This document shows positions 3,541 to 37,990 of a stretch of DNA of 43,782 nt, piece after piece. How positions within the stretch are numbered: position 1 is the stretch's first letter; every line of letters starts with the position of its first letter. The notes under the pieces are model-generated. The model was not told where the DNA came from. It did not search any database and saw only the letters and a list, made by a program, of their open reading frames with translations. A program made the translations under genes and the position numbers. Source of the DNA: a virus. Its lineage: Duplodnaviria > Caudoviricetes. The DNA lies in IMG/VR virus record IMGVR_UViG_3300011335_000838, positions 1 to 43,782 of that record. One strand, given 5' to 3'.

Positions 3541-5699
3541 TGGCAACTAACACCATCTGGAATCGATTCCTATCTGGCCTTGGAATCAATCGCTCCATAC
3601 CTGCTCCTTCCTTGGACAGTGTTCCGGGATCCGCTCGTCCCAGGCGGAATTTGAACGAGAGTGTCCTGACCAATGATTTCTGGATGTCATCCTACATCGA
3701 CATGATGGACAGGTTTCGTGATGGTGGTGGTCAATCCTATCCCATCTCCAATCCTCAAGACCGCAAGTACGGTTCCAACTATCCCTTCTGGTATTCCGAG
3801 CAACAGCTTTCCCTGATCCGGGCGCAAGCCCGCCTGGTGACCACCACCAACCCCAATGCCCTAGGACTCCTCAATGGACTCTGCTCCTATGTAATTGGCT
3901 CAGGATTCTCCTATCGTGCCATCCCCAAGGGGACTGTGGACATTGATGAATCTACAGTTCGCCGTTGTCAAGAAGTTCTTGAGCGATTCATATCGGAAAA
4001 TGAATGGGAAATAATGGAGCAAGAAATATTTAGCCGCTCCAGATCGGATGGTGAAGCTTTTATTCGCCTATTCCCTCAATCATCTGGCAGGCTGGTGATC
4101 CGCACAATCGAGCCGGAGCAAGTGTATATGCCGCCCGGAGAATCGATGGACAACTGGTCCTATGGGATCAACACCGATCCTGACGACTCATTCAATGTTC
4201 TCAACTACTATGTGGATTACCTGGCACCCAAGGGAGAATCCGCCGAACACGACAAAACACGCTTCGCATCTCCCAGTGGTGAAATTGTTGGTGCTGACCG
4301 TGTCATCCACATCAAGTGCAATGTTCCAAAATCAATCAAGCGAGGCCTATCAGATTTCTCCTATGAAACTCTAGACATGTTCACTCTCGCTGGAAAGTTA
4401 CGCAAGAATCTGGGCGAGGCGGCTTCAGTTCAATCCGCAATTGCAGCTATCCGCCAACATGATACCGCCACCTCAGCCCAAGTAGAAACCTTCGTTGATA
4501 ACAATATTGACTTCTCGGCAACCTCAAGTCCCAACAACCGCCAAACTGATTACCAGCGCATCGAACCCGGTTCATTCCTGGACATTCCAAAAGGAATGAA
4601 TTATGTCCAGCCTCCCGGTGCTGAATTCGCAAAAGATCACCTGGATATCTTTCAGGCTTTGCTGCGATCCGCTGGAAACCGCCATAATGCTCCTGAATGG
4701 CTATCATCTGCTAACACAGCTGGTGCAAACTATGCATCATCTCTAACAGCTGAAAGTCCATTCCTTCGCAATTGCATCAGGATGCAGACCTTCTACAAGC
4801 GATACTTCACGCGGATTGCCCGTGAGGCCGTCCGCACAGCTGCAGAGTATGGCGAACTCCCCATCAACATCCTCGATGTGATCGACATTATTGTCACTCC
4901 ACCCGCAGTAGAAGCCCGCGACAAGATTGCGGATTCGCAAGCAAACCAGACATATGTGACAATGGGCATTAAATCCGCCCAGACTGTCACACAGGAACTT
5001 GGCCTCGACTTTGATCAAGAGCAGCGCAATATCGAGCAGCAGGCCGATAAGATGGCATCTGACCTTCCACCAGGAGAGGATTCTCAATCCCAGGTTTCTG
5101 ATTCTGCCCTTAATGGTCTTCAGATTGAGAACCTGGTTGGAATCGTTATGCGAGCCGCCTCTGGCCAAATCAGCATCGAGGTTGCACGAGCGATTGCCAA
5201 GGCGGCATTCCCGCTCATGCCTGACGAGCAAATCACCGCAATATTCCCTGATAGCCTGGCAGGGACACGGGAAATCCCAGCCCGATCCAAGGCCGCGCCC
5301 AAGGAAATCAAAACCTCTCCCACTGGAGTGTCAAACGATCCAACCGCCCCACCAGAAGGCATGGAAGTATCACCAGTAGCAGAATCCAAATCGATAAACT
5401 TCAAGCCACCAGCATCAGTAAGAAGTGCTGCAAAAAGAGGATTGAAGCTTCGGGCCAAATACAATCGTGGAGGAACCGCAGTTGGAGTTGCAAGGGCGAG
5501 AGACCTGATGAATGGGGCCAACTTGTCACCATCGACAATCAAACGGATGACATCCTATTTTGCCCGCCATGAAGTGGACAAGAAGGGAGAAGGGTGGGGC
5601 GAAGACTCCGCAGGCTATATCGCATGGCTCCTGTGGGGCGGGGATGCGGGTTGGTCATGGGCTAGGAAGATTTCCGCCCAAATTGATAGGAAAAAATAA
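3540..5699 (+). CDS. portal protein with C-terminal extension domains
   Basis: Follows terL; DGEAFIR, VIHIK...RGLS, NYASS motifs of lambda-like portals; ~200 extra C-terminal residues. Confidence 0.85.
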   Translation: MATNTIWNRFLSGLGINRSIPAPSLDSVPGSARPRRNLNESVLTNDFWMSSYIDMMDRFRDGGGQSYPISNPQDRKYGSNYPFWYSEQQLSLIRAQARLVTTTNPNALGLLNGLCSYVIGSGFSYRAIPKGTVDIDESTVRRCQEVLERFISENEWEIMEQEIFSRSRSDGEAFIRLFPQSSGRLVIRTIEPEQVYMPPGESMDNWSYGINTDPDDSFNVLNYYVDYLAPKGESAEHDKTRFASPSGEIVGADRVIHIKCNVPKSIKRGLSDFSYETLDMFTLAGKLRKNLGEAASVQSAIAAIRQHDTATSAQVETFVDNNIDFSATSSPNNRQTDYQRIEPGSFLDIPKGMNYVQPPGAEFAKDHLDIFQALLRSAGNRHNAPEWLSSANTAGANYASSLTAESPFLRNCIRMQTFYKRYFTRIAREAVRTAAEYGELPINILDVIDIIVTPPAVEARDKIADSQANQTYVTMGIKSAQTVTQELGLDFDQEQRNIEQQADKMASDLPPGEDSQSQVSDSALNGLQIENLVGIVMRAASGQISIEVARAIAKAAFPLMPDEQITAIFPDSLAGTREIPARSKAAPKEIKTSPTGVSNDPTAPPEGMEVSPVAESKSINFKPPASVRSAAKRGLKLRAKYNRGGTAVGVARARDLMNGANLSPSTIKRMTSYFARHEVDKKGEGWGEDSAGYIAWLLWGGDAGWSWARKISAQIDRKK

Positions 5700-5701
5700 G
5701 G

Positions 5702-7750
5702 ATGAATCAATCTATTGCAAGAAGTAATAAAATACTTGCTGCCAAAATTGGCATACAGCAGATTGAAGTCCTTCAAGCCAACAACAACATCTCGCGGATG
5801 GTGCGAGGAGCTATATCTGCCCGCGAGCGCATTGCACTTCTACCAACCAATCTCTCGTCTTTCGAGAGGATATTGGAGCAAATGGTGTTAGCCTACCTGG
5901 ATGCAGGGAAGGTAGTAGTGAACAGATGTCCGGCCATGCTCACAAACCATCACAACGCCATGACCAAGATCCTCAAATCTTTCATCTTGGACAGTCCATC
6001 AGAGTTGCAAGAGGCGAACAAGAAGTCGATAGTAGCCCGAATATTCCCAGGCATTCCAAAAGACCTGGTAATGAATATTATTCACGGCAAATCTATCCCG
6101 GCAAAACTTCTCCAGAAAATGCAAAAGAATGGATTATCTACTTCTAGTATTGCAAAGCTGGCATCTATAGAGAATGATCCTATAAAAAAGAAGCAATTGG
6201 TATCACAATACTTTCACAAGCTAAAAACTTCAGCATATACTCTAACAAGAACAAATATATCAGAGATGACTTCGTTGATAAACAAAGAGGTGTATGGAGC
6301 AATACCGAGGGATCTTGTGGGATATCAGGTTCACGGGATCATGGATGACAGGATTAGGCCTGAACATCGGGCAAGGAATGGCACAATTTATTACCGCGTC
6401 CCCAGATATGGAAACCTGGGTCTGGAGAAGATGCCTAACCCGCCCCTGGAGGCCGATGGGAGCCATGCCTGGAATTGCCGATGCGTTACGGGTGAATGCC
6501 GGGTAAATGGCTATGTAAAATCAATTTCAAGGTTCTTATATGACGGGGAGTTCACCAAGATACGAACAGCTGGTGGCGCAGAAATCACCGTCACCAGTAA
6601 TCATCCTATAGCCACAAGATTTGGGCTTGTGCAAGCCAATATGATCTCTGAAGGCGATGACATTATCACAAACTTTAATAGTGTCAGTAATTTCTCCGAA
6701 AATGTAAAAAACAAAGTACCCACGATCAAGAATGTATTTGAGTCGATCCTCGTAAACGGTGGAAGGTTCGCCTCGTTTGATCTTCCAAAGCCTCTGGATT
6801 TCCACGGCGATGGGAAGTTCGCTAAAGGAAAAGTCGACATTGTATTTGCCGATAACAAATTGATGACTAAGGGCAATTCCACGCCCGTTCATTTCTTTCA
6901 CAAAAACGGATTCGTCTTGGCTGAAACGGTTGAGATGAGCGTTCCTGACTTGTCGTCCACGAGAATCGTCAGCCATCCCAAGCCATTTGATTCTCTCAGA
7001 AGAAGATTGGCATCTGGGTTTAATTCCAGCCTCAATAAGTCTAGCCAAAAGGCCGAACGACTTACCCTTGTTAGGTCCAGTCTTGGCAACGCCACCCCTA
7101 CTAATCCCATATTCCTTGGAGAGACAATTCAAGGATTCACCTGCAATATACCTAGGAATAAAATCCGGAGGCGGTTCTTTAAGCTTGGAGATCCTCATTG
7201 CTTCAGATTTAGTCCTGATTCTGACCCCAAGGCTGGAGAGCCATCTCCCCACAGTATCGCCTTTGACTCCAATTTCTCTTCCTATCTGCTGAAGAGATAC
7301 TCCGGAAATATATCGCTCGATAAAGTAGTTGAGATTACTAGGTTTCATAAAAAAGAACTCGTATACAGCGTTGATTCACACAATGGTTATTATATGGCAT
7401 CAGACAGCAACATTGCAATATTAAATGGGAACTGCTGGATCACGCCAATATTGAGTACCGATCCCAAAAAATTCTATGACTACAAGGGACGCATTATTCC
7501 TGATGCAAAGACCTTCAGTAACTGGTTTGGAGCGTCACCCAGATCAAAGCAAGTACTGGCGGTTGGCGTGAGAAGGCACCAGGAGGCTTCCAAGAGGTTG
7601 AAACCTGGGGAAACACTCCAATGGCATCACCTTCTTGACCCAAAGACGGGGATGCTGATGGATGCCAGTGAGATAAGGGCTGAGACTATAACGCAAAGAT
7701 CTGGACGAATTAGATCCATAAAATCAAAAATATTGAAAAATTCATCTTGA
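5702..7750 (+). CDS. MuF/SPP1 gp7-like head morphogenesis protein, intein-containing
   Basis: Follows portal; DDRIRPEH...G motif; removing the intein restores PP...HAWNCR|CWITPI. Confidence 0.85.
   Translation: MNQSIARSNKILAAKIGIQQIEVLQANNNISRMVRGAISARERIALLPTNLSSFERILEQMVLAYLDAGKVVVNRCPAMLTNHHNAMTKILKSFILDSPSELQEANKKSIVARIFPGIPKDLVMNIIHGKSIPAKLLQKMQKNGLSTSSIAKLASIENDPIKKKQLVSQYFHKLKTSAYTLTRTNISEMTSLINKEVYGAIPRDLVGYQVHGIMDDRIRPEHRARNGTIYYRVPRYGNLGLEKMPNPPLEADGSHAWNCRCVTGECRVNGYVKSISRFLYDGEFTKIRTAGGAEITVTSNHPIATRFGLVQANMISEGDDIITNFNSVSNFSENVKNKVPTIKNVFESILVNGGRFASFDLPKPLDFHGDGKFAKGKVDIVFADNKLMTKGNSTPVHFFHKNGFVLAETVEMSVPDLSSTRIVSHPKPFDSLRRRLASGFNSSLNKSSQKAERLTLVRSSLGNATPTNPIFLGETIQGFTCNIPRNKIRRRFFKLGDPHCFRFSPDSDPKAGEPSPHSIAFDSNFSSYLLKRYSGNISLDKVVEITRFHKKELVYSVDSHNGYYMASDSNIAILNGNCWITPILSTDPKKFYDYKGRIIPDAKTFSNWFGASPRSKQVLAVGVRRHQEASKRLKPGETLQWHHLLDPKTGMLMDASEIRAETITQRSGRIRSIKSKILKNSS
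6536..7348 (-). CDS. antisense homing-endonuclease-like protein: two HTH repeats + DUF559/Vsr-like nuclease domain
   Basis: RYISGVSLQQIGREIGV...WL and RYIAGESLNCLSKEYGI repeats; SQDE...QFVIGKYNVDF...IAVEI...DR...RGYFVFYI; lies wholly within the intein. Confidence 0.8.
   Translation of the reverse strand: MKPSNLNYFIERYISGVSLQQIGREIGVKGDTVGRWLSSLGVRIRTKSEAMRISKLKEPPPDFIPRYIAGESLNCLSKEYGISRGGVAKTGPNKGKSFGLLARLIEAGIKPRCQSSSERIKWLGMADDSRGRQVRNAHLNRFSQDESVFVKEMNGRGIALSHQFVIGKYNVDFSFSELPIAVEIQRLWKIKRGEPSTVYEDRLKYILDRGYFVFYIFGEITDTIKVCDNVIAFRDHIGLHKPKSCGYRMITGDGDFCATSCSYLGELPVI
7389..7418 (-). promoter_or_regulatory. sigma70-like promoter for the antisense endonuclease ORF
   Basis: On -: TTGCAA (7418-7413), 18-nt spacer, TATAAT (7394-7389), 40 nt upstream of the ATG at 7348. 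Confidence 0.6.
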
Positions 7751-26333: not shown

Positions 26334-27230
26334 ATGGAAGACCTGCATTTCGGTTGGTTTAATGACCCATTTGAAGTTGCCGCTATTGCTCAGCAACAAC
26401 CATTTCAAACATTCTCAGATACTCCAGCCTCAGAAGTTGGCGATATCCCAGACTCCTACTTCTCCTGGAAAGTCTTTGAGAATGTGACCAGGTCGAAAAT
26501 GCTGAATGAGAATCAGGGTAGCATCGGATCTTGCGTCTCATTTGGAACAGCAGCTGCAATCGAATGCACCATGATCCATGAAATAGCTTCTGGCAGCAAT
26601 GAGGACTTTCGCGAGATCTGTCAGGAAGTAATTTATGGTGGTAGCCGCGTTGAGATCGGTGGCAACCGCATTAGTGGTGATGGCTCCATCGGCGCATGGG
26701 CGGCTCAATTCGTGACCAAATACGGATTTCTGGACCGTGGAGTGTATTTGAGCGGGAAGTACGATCTAACCAAATATGATGTGTCACGATGCAAGTTGTG
26801 GGGGACCAAGGGAGTTCCTGATGATCTAGAACCTGAAGTAAAGAAGCATCCTGTCAAAACTATTACTCAGGTCAAATCATGGGATGAGGCTAAAAAAGCC
26901 TTGGCGCAAGGATACGGTATTTCTGTGTGTTCTAATCAGGGATTCAAGATGGTCAGGGATAAGGATGGATTCTGCACCGATAGTGGCAGATGGGGCCATT
27001 GCATGGCACTAATTGGTTATCGGACCAAGGGGCGTGAGGGCGGGTTCATCAAAAACAGCTGGGGTGCAGACGCAATGACCGGCCCAATAGGTGAGGGTGA
27101 TGGGCCTCCTTCAGGATTTTGGGCGGATTCTGCTGTAGTCGATAGAATGCTTAAAGCAGGGGACAGTTGGGCCTTCTCTGCTGTCGAAGGTTTTCCCAAA
27201 AAAGATATCATTGATTGGTCAACAATTTAA
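26334..27230 (+). CDS. papain-like (C1) cysteine peptidase
   Basis: NQGSIGSCVSFG (Gln/Cys), WGHCMALIGY (His), IKNSWG (Asn). Confidence 0.9.
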   Translation: MEDLHFGWFNDPFEVAAIAQQQPFQTFSDTPASEVGDIPDSYFSWKVFENVTRSKMLNENQGSIGSCVSFGTAAAIECTMIHEIASGSNEDFREICQEVIYGGSRVEIGGNRISGDGSIGAWAAQFVTKYGFLDRGVYLSGKYDLTKYDVSRCKLWGTKGVPDDLEPEVKKHPVKTITQVKSWDEAKKALAQGYGISVCSNQGFKMVRDKDGFCTDSGRWGHCMALIGYRTKGREGGFIKNSWGADAMTGPIGEGDGPPSGFWADSAVVDRMLKAGDSWAFSAVEGFPKKDIIDWSTI

Positions 27231-28251: not shown

Positions 28252-29382
28252 TTATGTCCTCTTATTAATTATGTTTTCAACCATTTGAATACGCTCACCA
28301 ATCCAACGCATTACTGGGACCGCCATACTGTTACCTAGAGCTTTATACCTTGGACTGTCATATTTGCTAAGGGTGTAATCGTCAGGAAATCCCTGAAGCC
28401 TTTCACACTCCCTAGGCGTCAACCTTCTGACCTGAGGCTCAACAGATCTAGGCAGAACTACAGGGAAACGGTTTTTTTCTGGCATCATCTGGCCTTTGGC
28501 TACGACTGAGTCTATTGTCTGGGATACCTCAGATCCATCCCAGAAACACCCCTTGGATGTAGCACGAACTACCGCTTCTACCTGGGTGGTTATTTCAGAA
28601 GATTGCGGACTCCTTGAAGGATCATTTGAAGCAGTTAATGTTGGAGCCGATATTGCTACGCATGGTTCTGTGTCATCCCGCTTGGTCTGACTGGTCAGGG
28701 TGGGAACTACTCTGCTTCCCGCAATGGTTCCTGATCTTCGCGCTTCTGCGACTGTGAACGCAATAGCACCGCATTCAATGCCCGGACAAGAATCTGCGGG
28801 AGAATCTTTCCTTTTTTTTCGCATCTCCTGATTATTCCAGCACAAGCTTTTTCGCTCAAAAAGTACCGCTGCGGAACTCCTCCAACATCCTGCTCCAAGA
28901 TATCCGATAAGGAAGACTCGCTTCCTTCGTTGTGGGACTCCGAAGTGTTTAGCGTCCAACACTCTCCATGATATGCCATACCCGAATTTGACCAGCGACC
29001 CGATAAAGGCGGCGAAATCCTTTCCTCCGTTACTGGACAGGACACCTGGGACATTTTCCCAGACAATCCAACGGGGGAGGAATCGAGCAGCAATTCCTGA
29101 AAACGCAAGGGCCAATCTACCACGCGGGTCATCCATGCCACCTCGTCCTCCAGCTGTGGAGAACGATTGGCGAGGGGTTCCTCCCACAAGAATGTCGATT
29201 GAACCAATTTTCCACTTTTCATATTCCGTTATGTCTCCCAGGTTCGGAGTCTCTGGATAATGTCTAGCAAGTATTGAAGCTGGAAATGGTTCTATTTCTG
29301 AATACGCTTCCGCTTTCCAGCCAAGGTGTTTCCAGGCTACAGTAGCCGCTTCAATTCCAGAGCATACAGAAAGGTATTTCAT
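28252..29382 (-). CDS. C5 cytosine DNA methyltransferase (catalytic Cys replaced by Arg as sequenced)
   Basis: SVCSGIEA (I), GGTPRQSFS (IV), ENVPG (VI), PQRRKRVF (VIII), RRLTPRECERLQGFP (IX), GNSMAVPV (X). Confidence 0.92.
   Translation of the reverse strand: MKYLSVCSGIEAATVAWKHLGWKAEAYSEIEPFPASILARHYPETPNLGDITEYEKWKIGSIDILVGGTPRQSFSTAGGRGGMDDPRGRLALAFSGIAARFLPRWIVWENVPGVLSSNGGKDFAAFIGSLVKFGYGISWRVLDAKHFGVPQRRKRVFLIGYLGAGCWRSSAAVLFERKSLCWNNQEMRKKRKDSPADSCPGIECGAIAFTVAEARRSGTIAGSRVVPTLTSQTKRDDTEPCVAISAPTLTASNDPSRSPQSSEITTQVEAVVRATSKGCFWDGSEVSQTIDSVVAKGQMMPEKNRFPVVLPRSVEPQVRRLTPRECERLQGFPDDYTLSKYDSPRYKALGNSMAVPVMRWIGERIQMVENIINKRT
28707..29222 (-). CDS. nested alternative-frame ORF inside the methyltransferase (possible second subunit)
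   Basis: 171 aa; SLSDILE...VPQRYFLSEKACAGIIRR..KKGK.LP..L resembles the post-motif-VIII segment of C5 MTases; start uncertain. Confidence 0.55.
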   Translation of the reverse strand: MKSGKLVQSTFLWEEPLANRSPQLEDEVAWMTRVVDWPLRFQELLLDSSPVGLSGKMSQVSCPVTEERISPPLSGRWSNSGMAYHGECWTLNTSESHNEGSESSLSDILEQDVGGVPQRYFLSEKACAGIIRRCEKKGKILPQILVRALNAVLLRSQSQKREDQEPLREAE

Positions 29383-37156: not shown

Positions 37157-37990
37157 TCAATCAGTACAGCTGCAAGGCATTGTATCATCATCGGGAAAAA
37201 TTAACAGGGGTTGCTCCTGAGCCATTCGGATTAGATTTCGGTAACTAGGCCGATCCGATCTAAATATCCCCTTCTTTTCCTTCCCATTCAAGTCCACACC
37301 GAAACTGGTCTCCTCCCTTTTTGCAAACCATTCCAGGTGAGAAGGGTTGTCCCTAGCAATCATGTCCAGCTTACTGGCACCCTTCAAGAAGCAACCAACG
37401 CAGTTGCTAAAAATCCTGGGAATATTAAGACGGAATGGTGATAGGTTCCAGTACGCTTCGACATCTTCAATGGTATGCTTGGCATCGTATATTGGGCATT
37501 CAATGTCCCTATTGTATTTGCCAGACTTGCTTTTGGAAACCCTCGCAGGCTCATCAAATCTCAAGCCCAGACACTCGGTATAATTATCCTCAAATCCAGG
37601 GATTGTTCTCACAAAGCGATCCATAGTCTTGATCTTCATTTCGGAAGTGCAAAACCTTGTCACAGGGTTTGGAAGATACTGACGATCCAGTATTACATCG
37701 TCAAATGGTTTCCCACTTCTATTGCTGCTTAGGTAATCCACCTCCTTGAATTTTCTTTTGGAGACATACTCCACCCACCTTATCTTTACTCCCATATGGT
37801 TTTGATATTCATTAATGAAATCGTATGTCTTCTCGTGTTCAATTCCGGTATTGGCAAACACCGGAATAATATTGCCTGGAAGCTTCCCTTCCCATGCTTC
37901 GATAATTTTCGACAGCATGAATGCCGATGTGGAGCCACCAGAGAAGGAGACTACCAGCGGTCCTTCTAGCCTGTATGGGTTGCGTTCCAT
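37157..37990 (-). CDS. PAPS-reductase family protein (NinC-like)
   Basis: SFSGGSTS PP-loop, FANTG.EH, RFCT..MKI, GLRFDE..R, NCVGCF. Confidence 0.85.
   Translation of the reverse strand: MERNPYRLEGPLVVSFSGGSTSAFMLSKIIEAWEGKLPGNIIPVFANTGIEHEKTYDFINEYQNHMGVKIRWVEYVSKRKFKEVDYLSSNRSGKPFDDVILDRQYLPNPVTRFCTSEMKIKTMDRFVRTIPGFEDNYTECLGLRFDEPARVSKSKSGKYNRDIECPIYDAKHTIEDVEAYWNLSPFRLNIPRIFSNCVGCFLKGASKLDMIARDNPSHLEWFAKREETSFGVDLNGKEKKGIFRSDRPSYRNLIRMAQEQPLLIFPDDDTMPCSCTD

Follow-up and report, generated by a model that had tools for sequence, protein, structure and literature searches.

The closest described system to the locus reported here is that of Gosselin, Arsenault and Gogarten (bioRxiv 10.1101/2025.01.02.630785), whose text describes anti-sense VSR-like homing endonucleases (HENs) inside full inteins of actinobacteriophages and states that the nucleases of minor-capsid inteins are non-canonical without exception. 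As in that system, our intein is contiguous and in frame with its host protein and has its HEN encoded anti-sense. Their structural model resembles 3R3P and 1CW0 (Z 10.6 over residues 144-267), and ours matches the same two structures (1CW0 at Z 10.9, residues 141-260). Because that report already describes the layout, what we present is a new copy of a known arrangement, and the novelty that an earlier note on this DNA had assumed for it falls away. I-Bth0305I (PMC3239194) has, like the gene studied here, a Vsr-like catalytic domain with N-terminal DNA-binding repeats, but its gene lies within a group I intron of recA and it needs H213 (H213A was built as an inactivating mutant), a position held by Lys in our protein. 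Dassa et al. (PMC2677866) described Vsr-like endonucleases between inteins that, unlike ours, are split, likewise keeping the nuclease apart from the splicing frame. A cyanobacterial dnaX intein (bioRxiv 10.64898/2026.09.14.751524) shows similar frame-dependent selection on an out-of-frame endonuclease, although that enzyme is a LAGLIDADG protein in the +2 frame.

The DNA analysed is a whole 43.8-kb virus record (hereafter the window). Its antisense ORF finds matches opposite the MuF genes of four Gordonia phages (Affeca, Fosterous, Keitabear, Angelicage) and one Rhodococcus phage (REQ3), at ~25% identity; unlike these actinophage relatives, the window derives from a freshwater or riverine virus. 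It further differs from the Gosselin et al. system, as their text describes it, in having its intein inserted ahead of the second Cys in the MuF motif NCRC (2 of 114 representatives) and in belonging to a nuclease clade that lacks the catalytic His. What this copy adds to the known layout is a natural empty target, an uncommon site, controlled statistics on expression signals and a constrained sense motif over the catalytic strand.

The interrupted MuF gene and its antisense ORF

The MuF/intein locus is flanked by terminase, portal and head genes. Its features are listed below in window coordinates; L001 denotes the one close intein-bearing relative, which served as the partner for dN/dS comparison.

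5702-7750, plus strand: interrupted MuF-like head protein ORF, 682 aa
5702-6481, plus strand: N-extein of MuF (minor capsid / head morphogenesis), 260 aa with ...NCR as its last residues; sense dN/dS 0.064 versus L001
6482-7432, plus strand: class-1-type intein of 317 aa, from Cys1 through Asn317 with Gly as the penultimate residue, ahead of the second NCRC Cys
6593-6604, plus strand: intein block B (TSNH, from the sequence), overlapped by the C-terminal tail of the nuclease
6713-6859, plus strand: predicted folded segment opposite the nuclease core, sense residues 78-126, with constrained silent sites
6797-6814, plus strand: DFHGDG motif of the sense frame, lying exactly opposite PIAVEI (nuclease residues 179-184), the catalytic strand
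6860-7261, plus strand: disordered, drifting linker, sense residues 127-260, pLDDT <50
7433-7750, plus strand: MuF C-extein, first residue Cys+1; sense dN/dS 0.029 versus L001
6536-7348, minus strand: antisense gene, 270 aa, with two HTH-like repeats (~1-110) and a Vsr/I-Bth0305I-like nuclease domain (141-260)
7389-7418, minus strand: sigma70-like promoter candidate TTGCAA-N18-TATAAT (10/12), within block F/G codons; the antisense ATG lies 40 nt downstream

The intein spans Cys261 to Asn577 in MuF numbering. Its boundaries at 6482 and 7432 could be fixed because a natural intein-free allele of the same MuF, found on a metagenome contig (L304), is exactly 365 aa long with NCRC intact. Together with the ORF coordinates, this allele confirmed the earlier proposal of a 317-aa intein splitting NCRC after NCR, and it agrees with the 365-aa extein predicted there. 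The class 1 residues Cys1, block B TxxH, terminal Asn and Cys+1 are present, and T38 and H41 of block B were invariant in 72 aligned family inteins. The window intein has no block F Asp, no block F His and no penultimate His (VYSV; ...NGN). A block F Asp and a penultimate His are usual in class 1 inteins, though not universal; across the family the penultimate residue was Ser in 49, His in 38 and Lys in 24 (n = 116 inteins). The Pfam Intein_splicing profile gave a match (E 2.6e-7) that falls short of its curated cut-off, and an AF2 model of the sense intein had a HINT fold (Z 12.1, 12.0 and 11.6 to Hedgehog, PI-PkoII and NpuDnaB, with ~105-110 residues aligned). The intein is predicted to splice and yield a 365-aa MuF, for which the purifying selection on the exteins speaks indirectly. 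Contigs of four DNA runs contained no intein-skipping joint; their coverage was patchy and they are evidence neither way. Family inteins have an unusually short N-terminal splicing region, with the block B His at about residue 41, ~30 residues nearer to Cys1 than in solved inteins.

The antisense ORF starts at an ATG formed, on the opposite strand, by a His codon that shortly precedes block F, ends with a stop at 6538-6536 and overlaps block B with its 3' part. Its offset from the MuF start (6536-5702 = 834) places the MuF and antisense frames in codon register, so that the 270-aa ORF, its register and its overlap with block B are all as first described. Over the overlap, dN/dS between the window and L001 was 0.171 in the antisense frame and 0.955 in the sense frame (0.03-0.06 for the sense frame of the exteins); the dN/dS comparison proposed in the earlier note found purifying selection on the antisense reading. 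Substitutions at sense codon positions 1:2:3 were distributed 23:5:6 in the linker and 9:11:80 in the exteins (p 4e-12, window versus L001), and summed to 222:42:90 in eight independent family pairs. With the antisense protein as query, phmmer returned 1226 cluster representatives at E ≤ 1e-3, and a word-index homolog search returned one protein. Judged by its substitution pattern and homologues, the antisense ORF is a genuine gene under purifying selection. We consider it probable that the locus is a MuF intein with a conserved, codon-registered antisense gene for a predicted HTH plus Vsr-like nuclease, likely its homing endonuclease. Weighing against this are the Lys at the catalytic His position, the block F Asp, block F His and penultimate His that the window's intein lacks, and the weak ribosome site of its antisense gene.

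A tblastn search placed the ORF opposite head or minor-capsid genes of Vibrio, Gordonia, Cronobacter, Salmonella and Pseudomonas phages, with the same opposite-strand placement in Aggregatibacter, Klebsiella, Escherichia and Rhodococcus phages (80 records at E ≤ 1, the weakest being unrelated HTH hits). Matches in Malisha, Fosterous and Affeca, on the strand opposite MuF, had E values of 3e-12 to 8e-10. The gene was unannotated in 20/20 opened phage records, Salmonella, Pseudomonas, Vibrio and Klebsiella phages included. At least 552 IMG/VR stretches carried the family in a single scan; of the two scans made, one took its pattern from the tail overlapping block B and was biased to inteins, and the other used nuclease-core patterns only. 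An opposite-strand ORF covered the nuclease match in register 0 in 141/141 distinct loci (181 examined), and the stops looked for in the antisense frames of homologues were absent. When loci were instead selected from the sense side by block B plus DFHGDG (119 fetched, 113 distinct, 44 without a parsable C-terminus, mostly owing to short flanks), the antisense frame was open in all 69 parsed loci. By these sequence surveys the family is far wider than actinophages.

In 108 of 114 representatives the insertion precedes the first Cys in the MuF motif; 2 have it ahead of the second and 4 have it elsewhere. The second-Cys site was used by the window lineage and by L085, whose nuclease is not among the closest. 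A search for the locus of the closest homologue (P0002) matched a distant member only, and a contig search for further relatives yielded no confirmed relative. Members of the same intein family occupied other Cys sites within MuF in L016, L036 and L039, and one (L032) combined a family intein and antisense nuclease with a host protein unlike MuF in appearance (insertion at ...LYG|C, then CRR). In Rhodococcus phage REQ3 (L015), a short intein starting with Ala had an antisense nuclease without the N-terminal HTH and kept a sense DLHGDA.

Signals and constraint in the shared codons

We compared signals in blocks F/G of 116 dereplicated inteins (131/141 parsed) with synonymous recoding of the same peptides. 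A CAT His codon no more than 8 codons upstream of block F was found in 108 (52 expected), GGAG/GAGG in 87 (18.6 expected), antisense TATAAT in 59 (6.7 expected) and TTGAC in 35 (10 expected; n = 116 throughout); the intein rows are related, and z-values of the enrichment therefore overstate its significance. No excess was seen in 67 ordinary control inteins (TATAAT 1 versus 2.4, ribosome site 0 versus 0.7), and a long antisense frame from block F occurred in 0/45 ordinary inteins. On this recoding test, blocks F/G across the family are enriched in start, ribosome-site and promoter signals. Inteins that have lost the His immediately preceding block F, the window's included, draw their ATG from another nearby His codon. 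The promoter-like site of the window recurs in L001, and a single such site is within chance (7 found versus 4.5 expected in the region); the window gene has a weak ribosome site, unlike most family members. The minus-strand promoter candidate would give the antisense gene signals separate from those of MuF, in line with the free expression of the nuclease suggested earlier. The main text of Gosselin et al., supplements aside, makes no mention of promoter, ribosome binding or start codon, and a literature search covering sources other than subscription papers and bioRxiv supplements gave no match for the promoter idea or for the DFHGDG motif.

The promoter sequences suggest that a promoter displaced the usual penultimate His. 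The penultimate residue was Ser or Lys in 73/116 family inteins, and in those with a penultimate Lys and a -10 box in block F, the -35 match was 5-6 of 6 in 15/17. A separate proposal, that only this family has a His before block F, was rejected; the KlbA intein has the same His.

The central ~200 aa of the intein had been read as junk in the earlier note, and part of this stands: the linker at 127-260 drifts, with 23 sense versus 10 antisense amino-acid changes relative to L001. The unstructured part is only ~134 aa long, however, and residues 78-126 are constrained and predicted to fold, AF2 giving a pLDDT of 87-96 to residues 81-120. Four-fold degenerate nuclease codons were strongly biased in 10/30 columns opposite sense residues 78-126 versus 2/54 opposite 127-260, the region used as background (p 6e-6), and the bias peaked where DFHGDG lies opposite PIAVEI (109 of 116 inteins parsed). 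At nuclease position 182, Val was encoded by GTG in 89/91 cases (background 15%) and Ile by ATA in 13/18 (background 10%), which results in sense His or Tyr; sense H or Y stood opposite this position in 103/109. The A181 codon was GCC in 105/109, and position 180 gave sense Asp or Glu in 108/109. These fixed, nuclease-silent sites are most simply read as selection acting on the sense protein, and we think that residues 78-126 are probably a folded, selected part of the intein and not filler. A pTM of 0.58 in a model that is ~58% ordered suggests that this segment may dock on the Hint core. If folded and selected as proposed, a DFHGDG-bearing subdomain might compensate for a Hint N-terminal region that is ~30 residues short.

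The fixed silent positions might instead be a DNA or RNA signal, such as an operator or RNA structure, and the AF2 confidence at 78-126 an echo of nuclease covariation, an explanation that we regard as unlikely though of real weight. First codon positions that are fixed can equally be read as fixed bases, an Atlas search with sense residues 60-132 gave no hit ≥0.9 and none that was informative, and inteins with DFHGDG but a dead nuclease, which would separate the two readings, numbered 0 in 69 parsed loci. Against this explanation, changes in the sense frame respect amino-acid chemistry, with His exchanged for Tyr, Asp for Glu and the rare ATA chosen for Ile; and AF2 leaves disordered the part of the sense frame that faces the HTH repeats, which are just as well folded. 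To a broader reading we give tentative credence somewhat short of even: the same codons would encode two working modules, with the catalytic strand PIAVEI in reverse forming a selected, folded DFHGDG subdomain and the block F/G motifs doubling as nuclease promoter, ribosome site and start codon, so that splicing domain and nuclease are physically interlocked. If so, hundreds of phages would hold a natural sense/antisense two-fold gene and not a nuclease parked in a junk loop. Should DFHGDG be needed for splicing, the family would offer, on a large scale and in nature, a case of two protein parts, both folded and selected, encoded by opposite strands of the same codons, with a bearing on the origin of overlapping genes and on why no decayed nucleases were seen in the loci examined.

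Predicted nuclease fold, active site and the empty allele

Searched alone against Pfam, PHROGs and NCBIfam, the antisense protein gave weak HTH matches only, and an alignment and predicted fold were therefore needed to identify the nuclease. We aligned 78 of the 152 sequences then collected, picked for similar length, and obtained an AF2 model with a pLDDT of 90. The best Foldseek match was 3R3P (E 4.6e-4), and the best structural matches were I-Bth0305I (3R3P), Vsr (1CW0) and NGO0050 (3HRL), with Z 10.9 over residues 141-260 (for 1CW0, Z 10.9, rmsd 2.7, 112 aligned). A profile match to 3R3P (E 7e-5) and HTH matches at the N-terminus likewise favour the two HTH repeats and Vsr-like domain originally named.

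E146 and D172 were invariant in 78/78 homologues, and Q163, E183 and R202 nearly so. Residues of I-Bth0305I map as E170 to E146, D196 to D172, N208 approximately to Q185 and D222 approximately to E200, the last lying two residues ahead of a conserved Arg at a position that was acidic in 41/78. Sequence alignment to 3R3P places K189 at H213, the EDxHD His, so the absence of this residue was correctly noted before. The two closest nuclease homologues (P0001 and P0002) also lack it, and a His within 8 residues of E183 was absent in 40/78 aligned homologues, a figure taken from the 78-sequence alignment only, as the locus-set counts held mis-parsed rows. By this model the antisense protein is a predicted EDxHD-like nuclease, yet strict EDxHD membership fails for want of the His. 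Decay, which the earlier note had entertained, is not indicated by the sequences, because E146, Q163, D172, E183 and R202 are kept and the His is missing in 40/78 homologues too.

The intein-free allele bears on mobility. Over 1070 extein bases, intein-bearing L001 differed from empty L304 at 24, and the window differed from L001 at 100 and from L304 at 98; because L001 and L304 are so close, a gain by homing or a precise loss was recent. The fourth codon downstream of the site is common to both intein-bearing alleles and differs in L304, a pattern that either a short co-conversion tract or an escape change in L304 could produce, as far as the three sequences go. Position -1 groups L001 with L304, and no upstream tract was seen. 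These three alleles are the mobility evidence and give no direction. Between the window and L001 the intein diverged less than the exteins (50/951 versus 100/1070 bases, p 5e-4); we rejected this as proof of recent homing, since double coding alone lowers divergence.

In the mechanism that we propose, the late MuF precursor would splice out the intein through Cys1, the block B His, Asn317 and Cys+1 to give the 365-aa MuF, and the nuclease would be expressed from a promoter and ATG of its own on the antisense strand, written in the block F/G codons. It would then cut the empty NCRC site of a phage infecting the same cell, into which recombination would copy the intein. A start codon lying opposite a His codon near block F would tie the antisense register to the splicing frame. 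With such signals, homing could plausibly be uncoupled from late-gene expression. The chief value of this copy is as a test case, in that the near-identical empty L304 (site around 1246/1247) offers a natural target for a Vsr-like nuclease without the His.

It is quite improbable that the window protein is a DNA-binding or nicking derivative that makes no homing double-strand breaks, its general-base His having been lost. Such a derivative would account for the missing His in the window protein, P0001 and P0002 and for the weak ribosome site, but it sits poorly with the retained E146, Q163, D172, E183 and R202, with Q185 and E200 at the N208 and D222 positions, with the frequency of His-less homologues, and with purifying selection on the nuclease that continues while the intein is patchy among near-identical phages. 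A homing endonuclease remains our preferred reading of the antisense gene. In 13 other window genes, in-register antisense stops made up 224 of 5973 codons, from which the chance of 279 open in-register antisense codons is ~2e-5. That the ORF is an unexpressed by-product of sense coding has a negligible probability: GC-rich genes do have long in-register antisense runs by chance, the longest in the other window genes reaching 230 codons, but the 1226 homologous cluster representatives, the 141/141 register, the antisense dN/dS of 0.17, the confident Vsr-like fold and the enriched signals already contradict it.

An Rfam search of the window gave no match. The portal has an additional C-terminal domain (phrog_2859; 5560-5690, plus strand), and in L304 the gene upstream of MuF has a C-terminal domain unlike that of the window's portal. 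Elsewhere, the window encodes a papain-family cysteine protease (26334-27230, plus strand; Pfam Peptidase_C1, E 1e-6) and two possible DNA-modification genes, a DNA methyltransferase (28252-29382, minus strand) and a PAPS-reductase-domain protein (37157-37990, minus strand).
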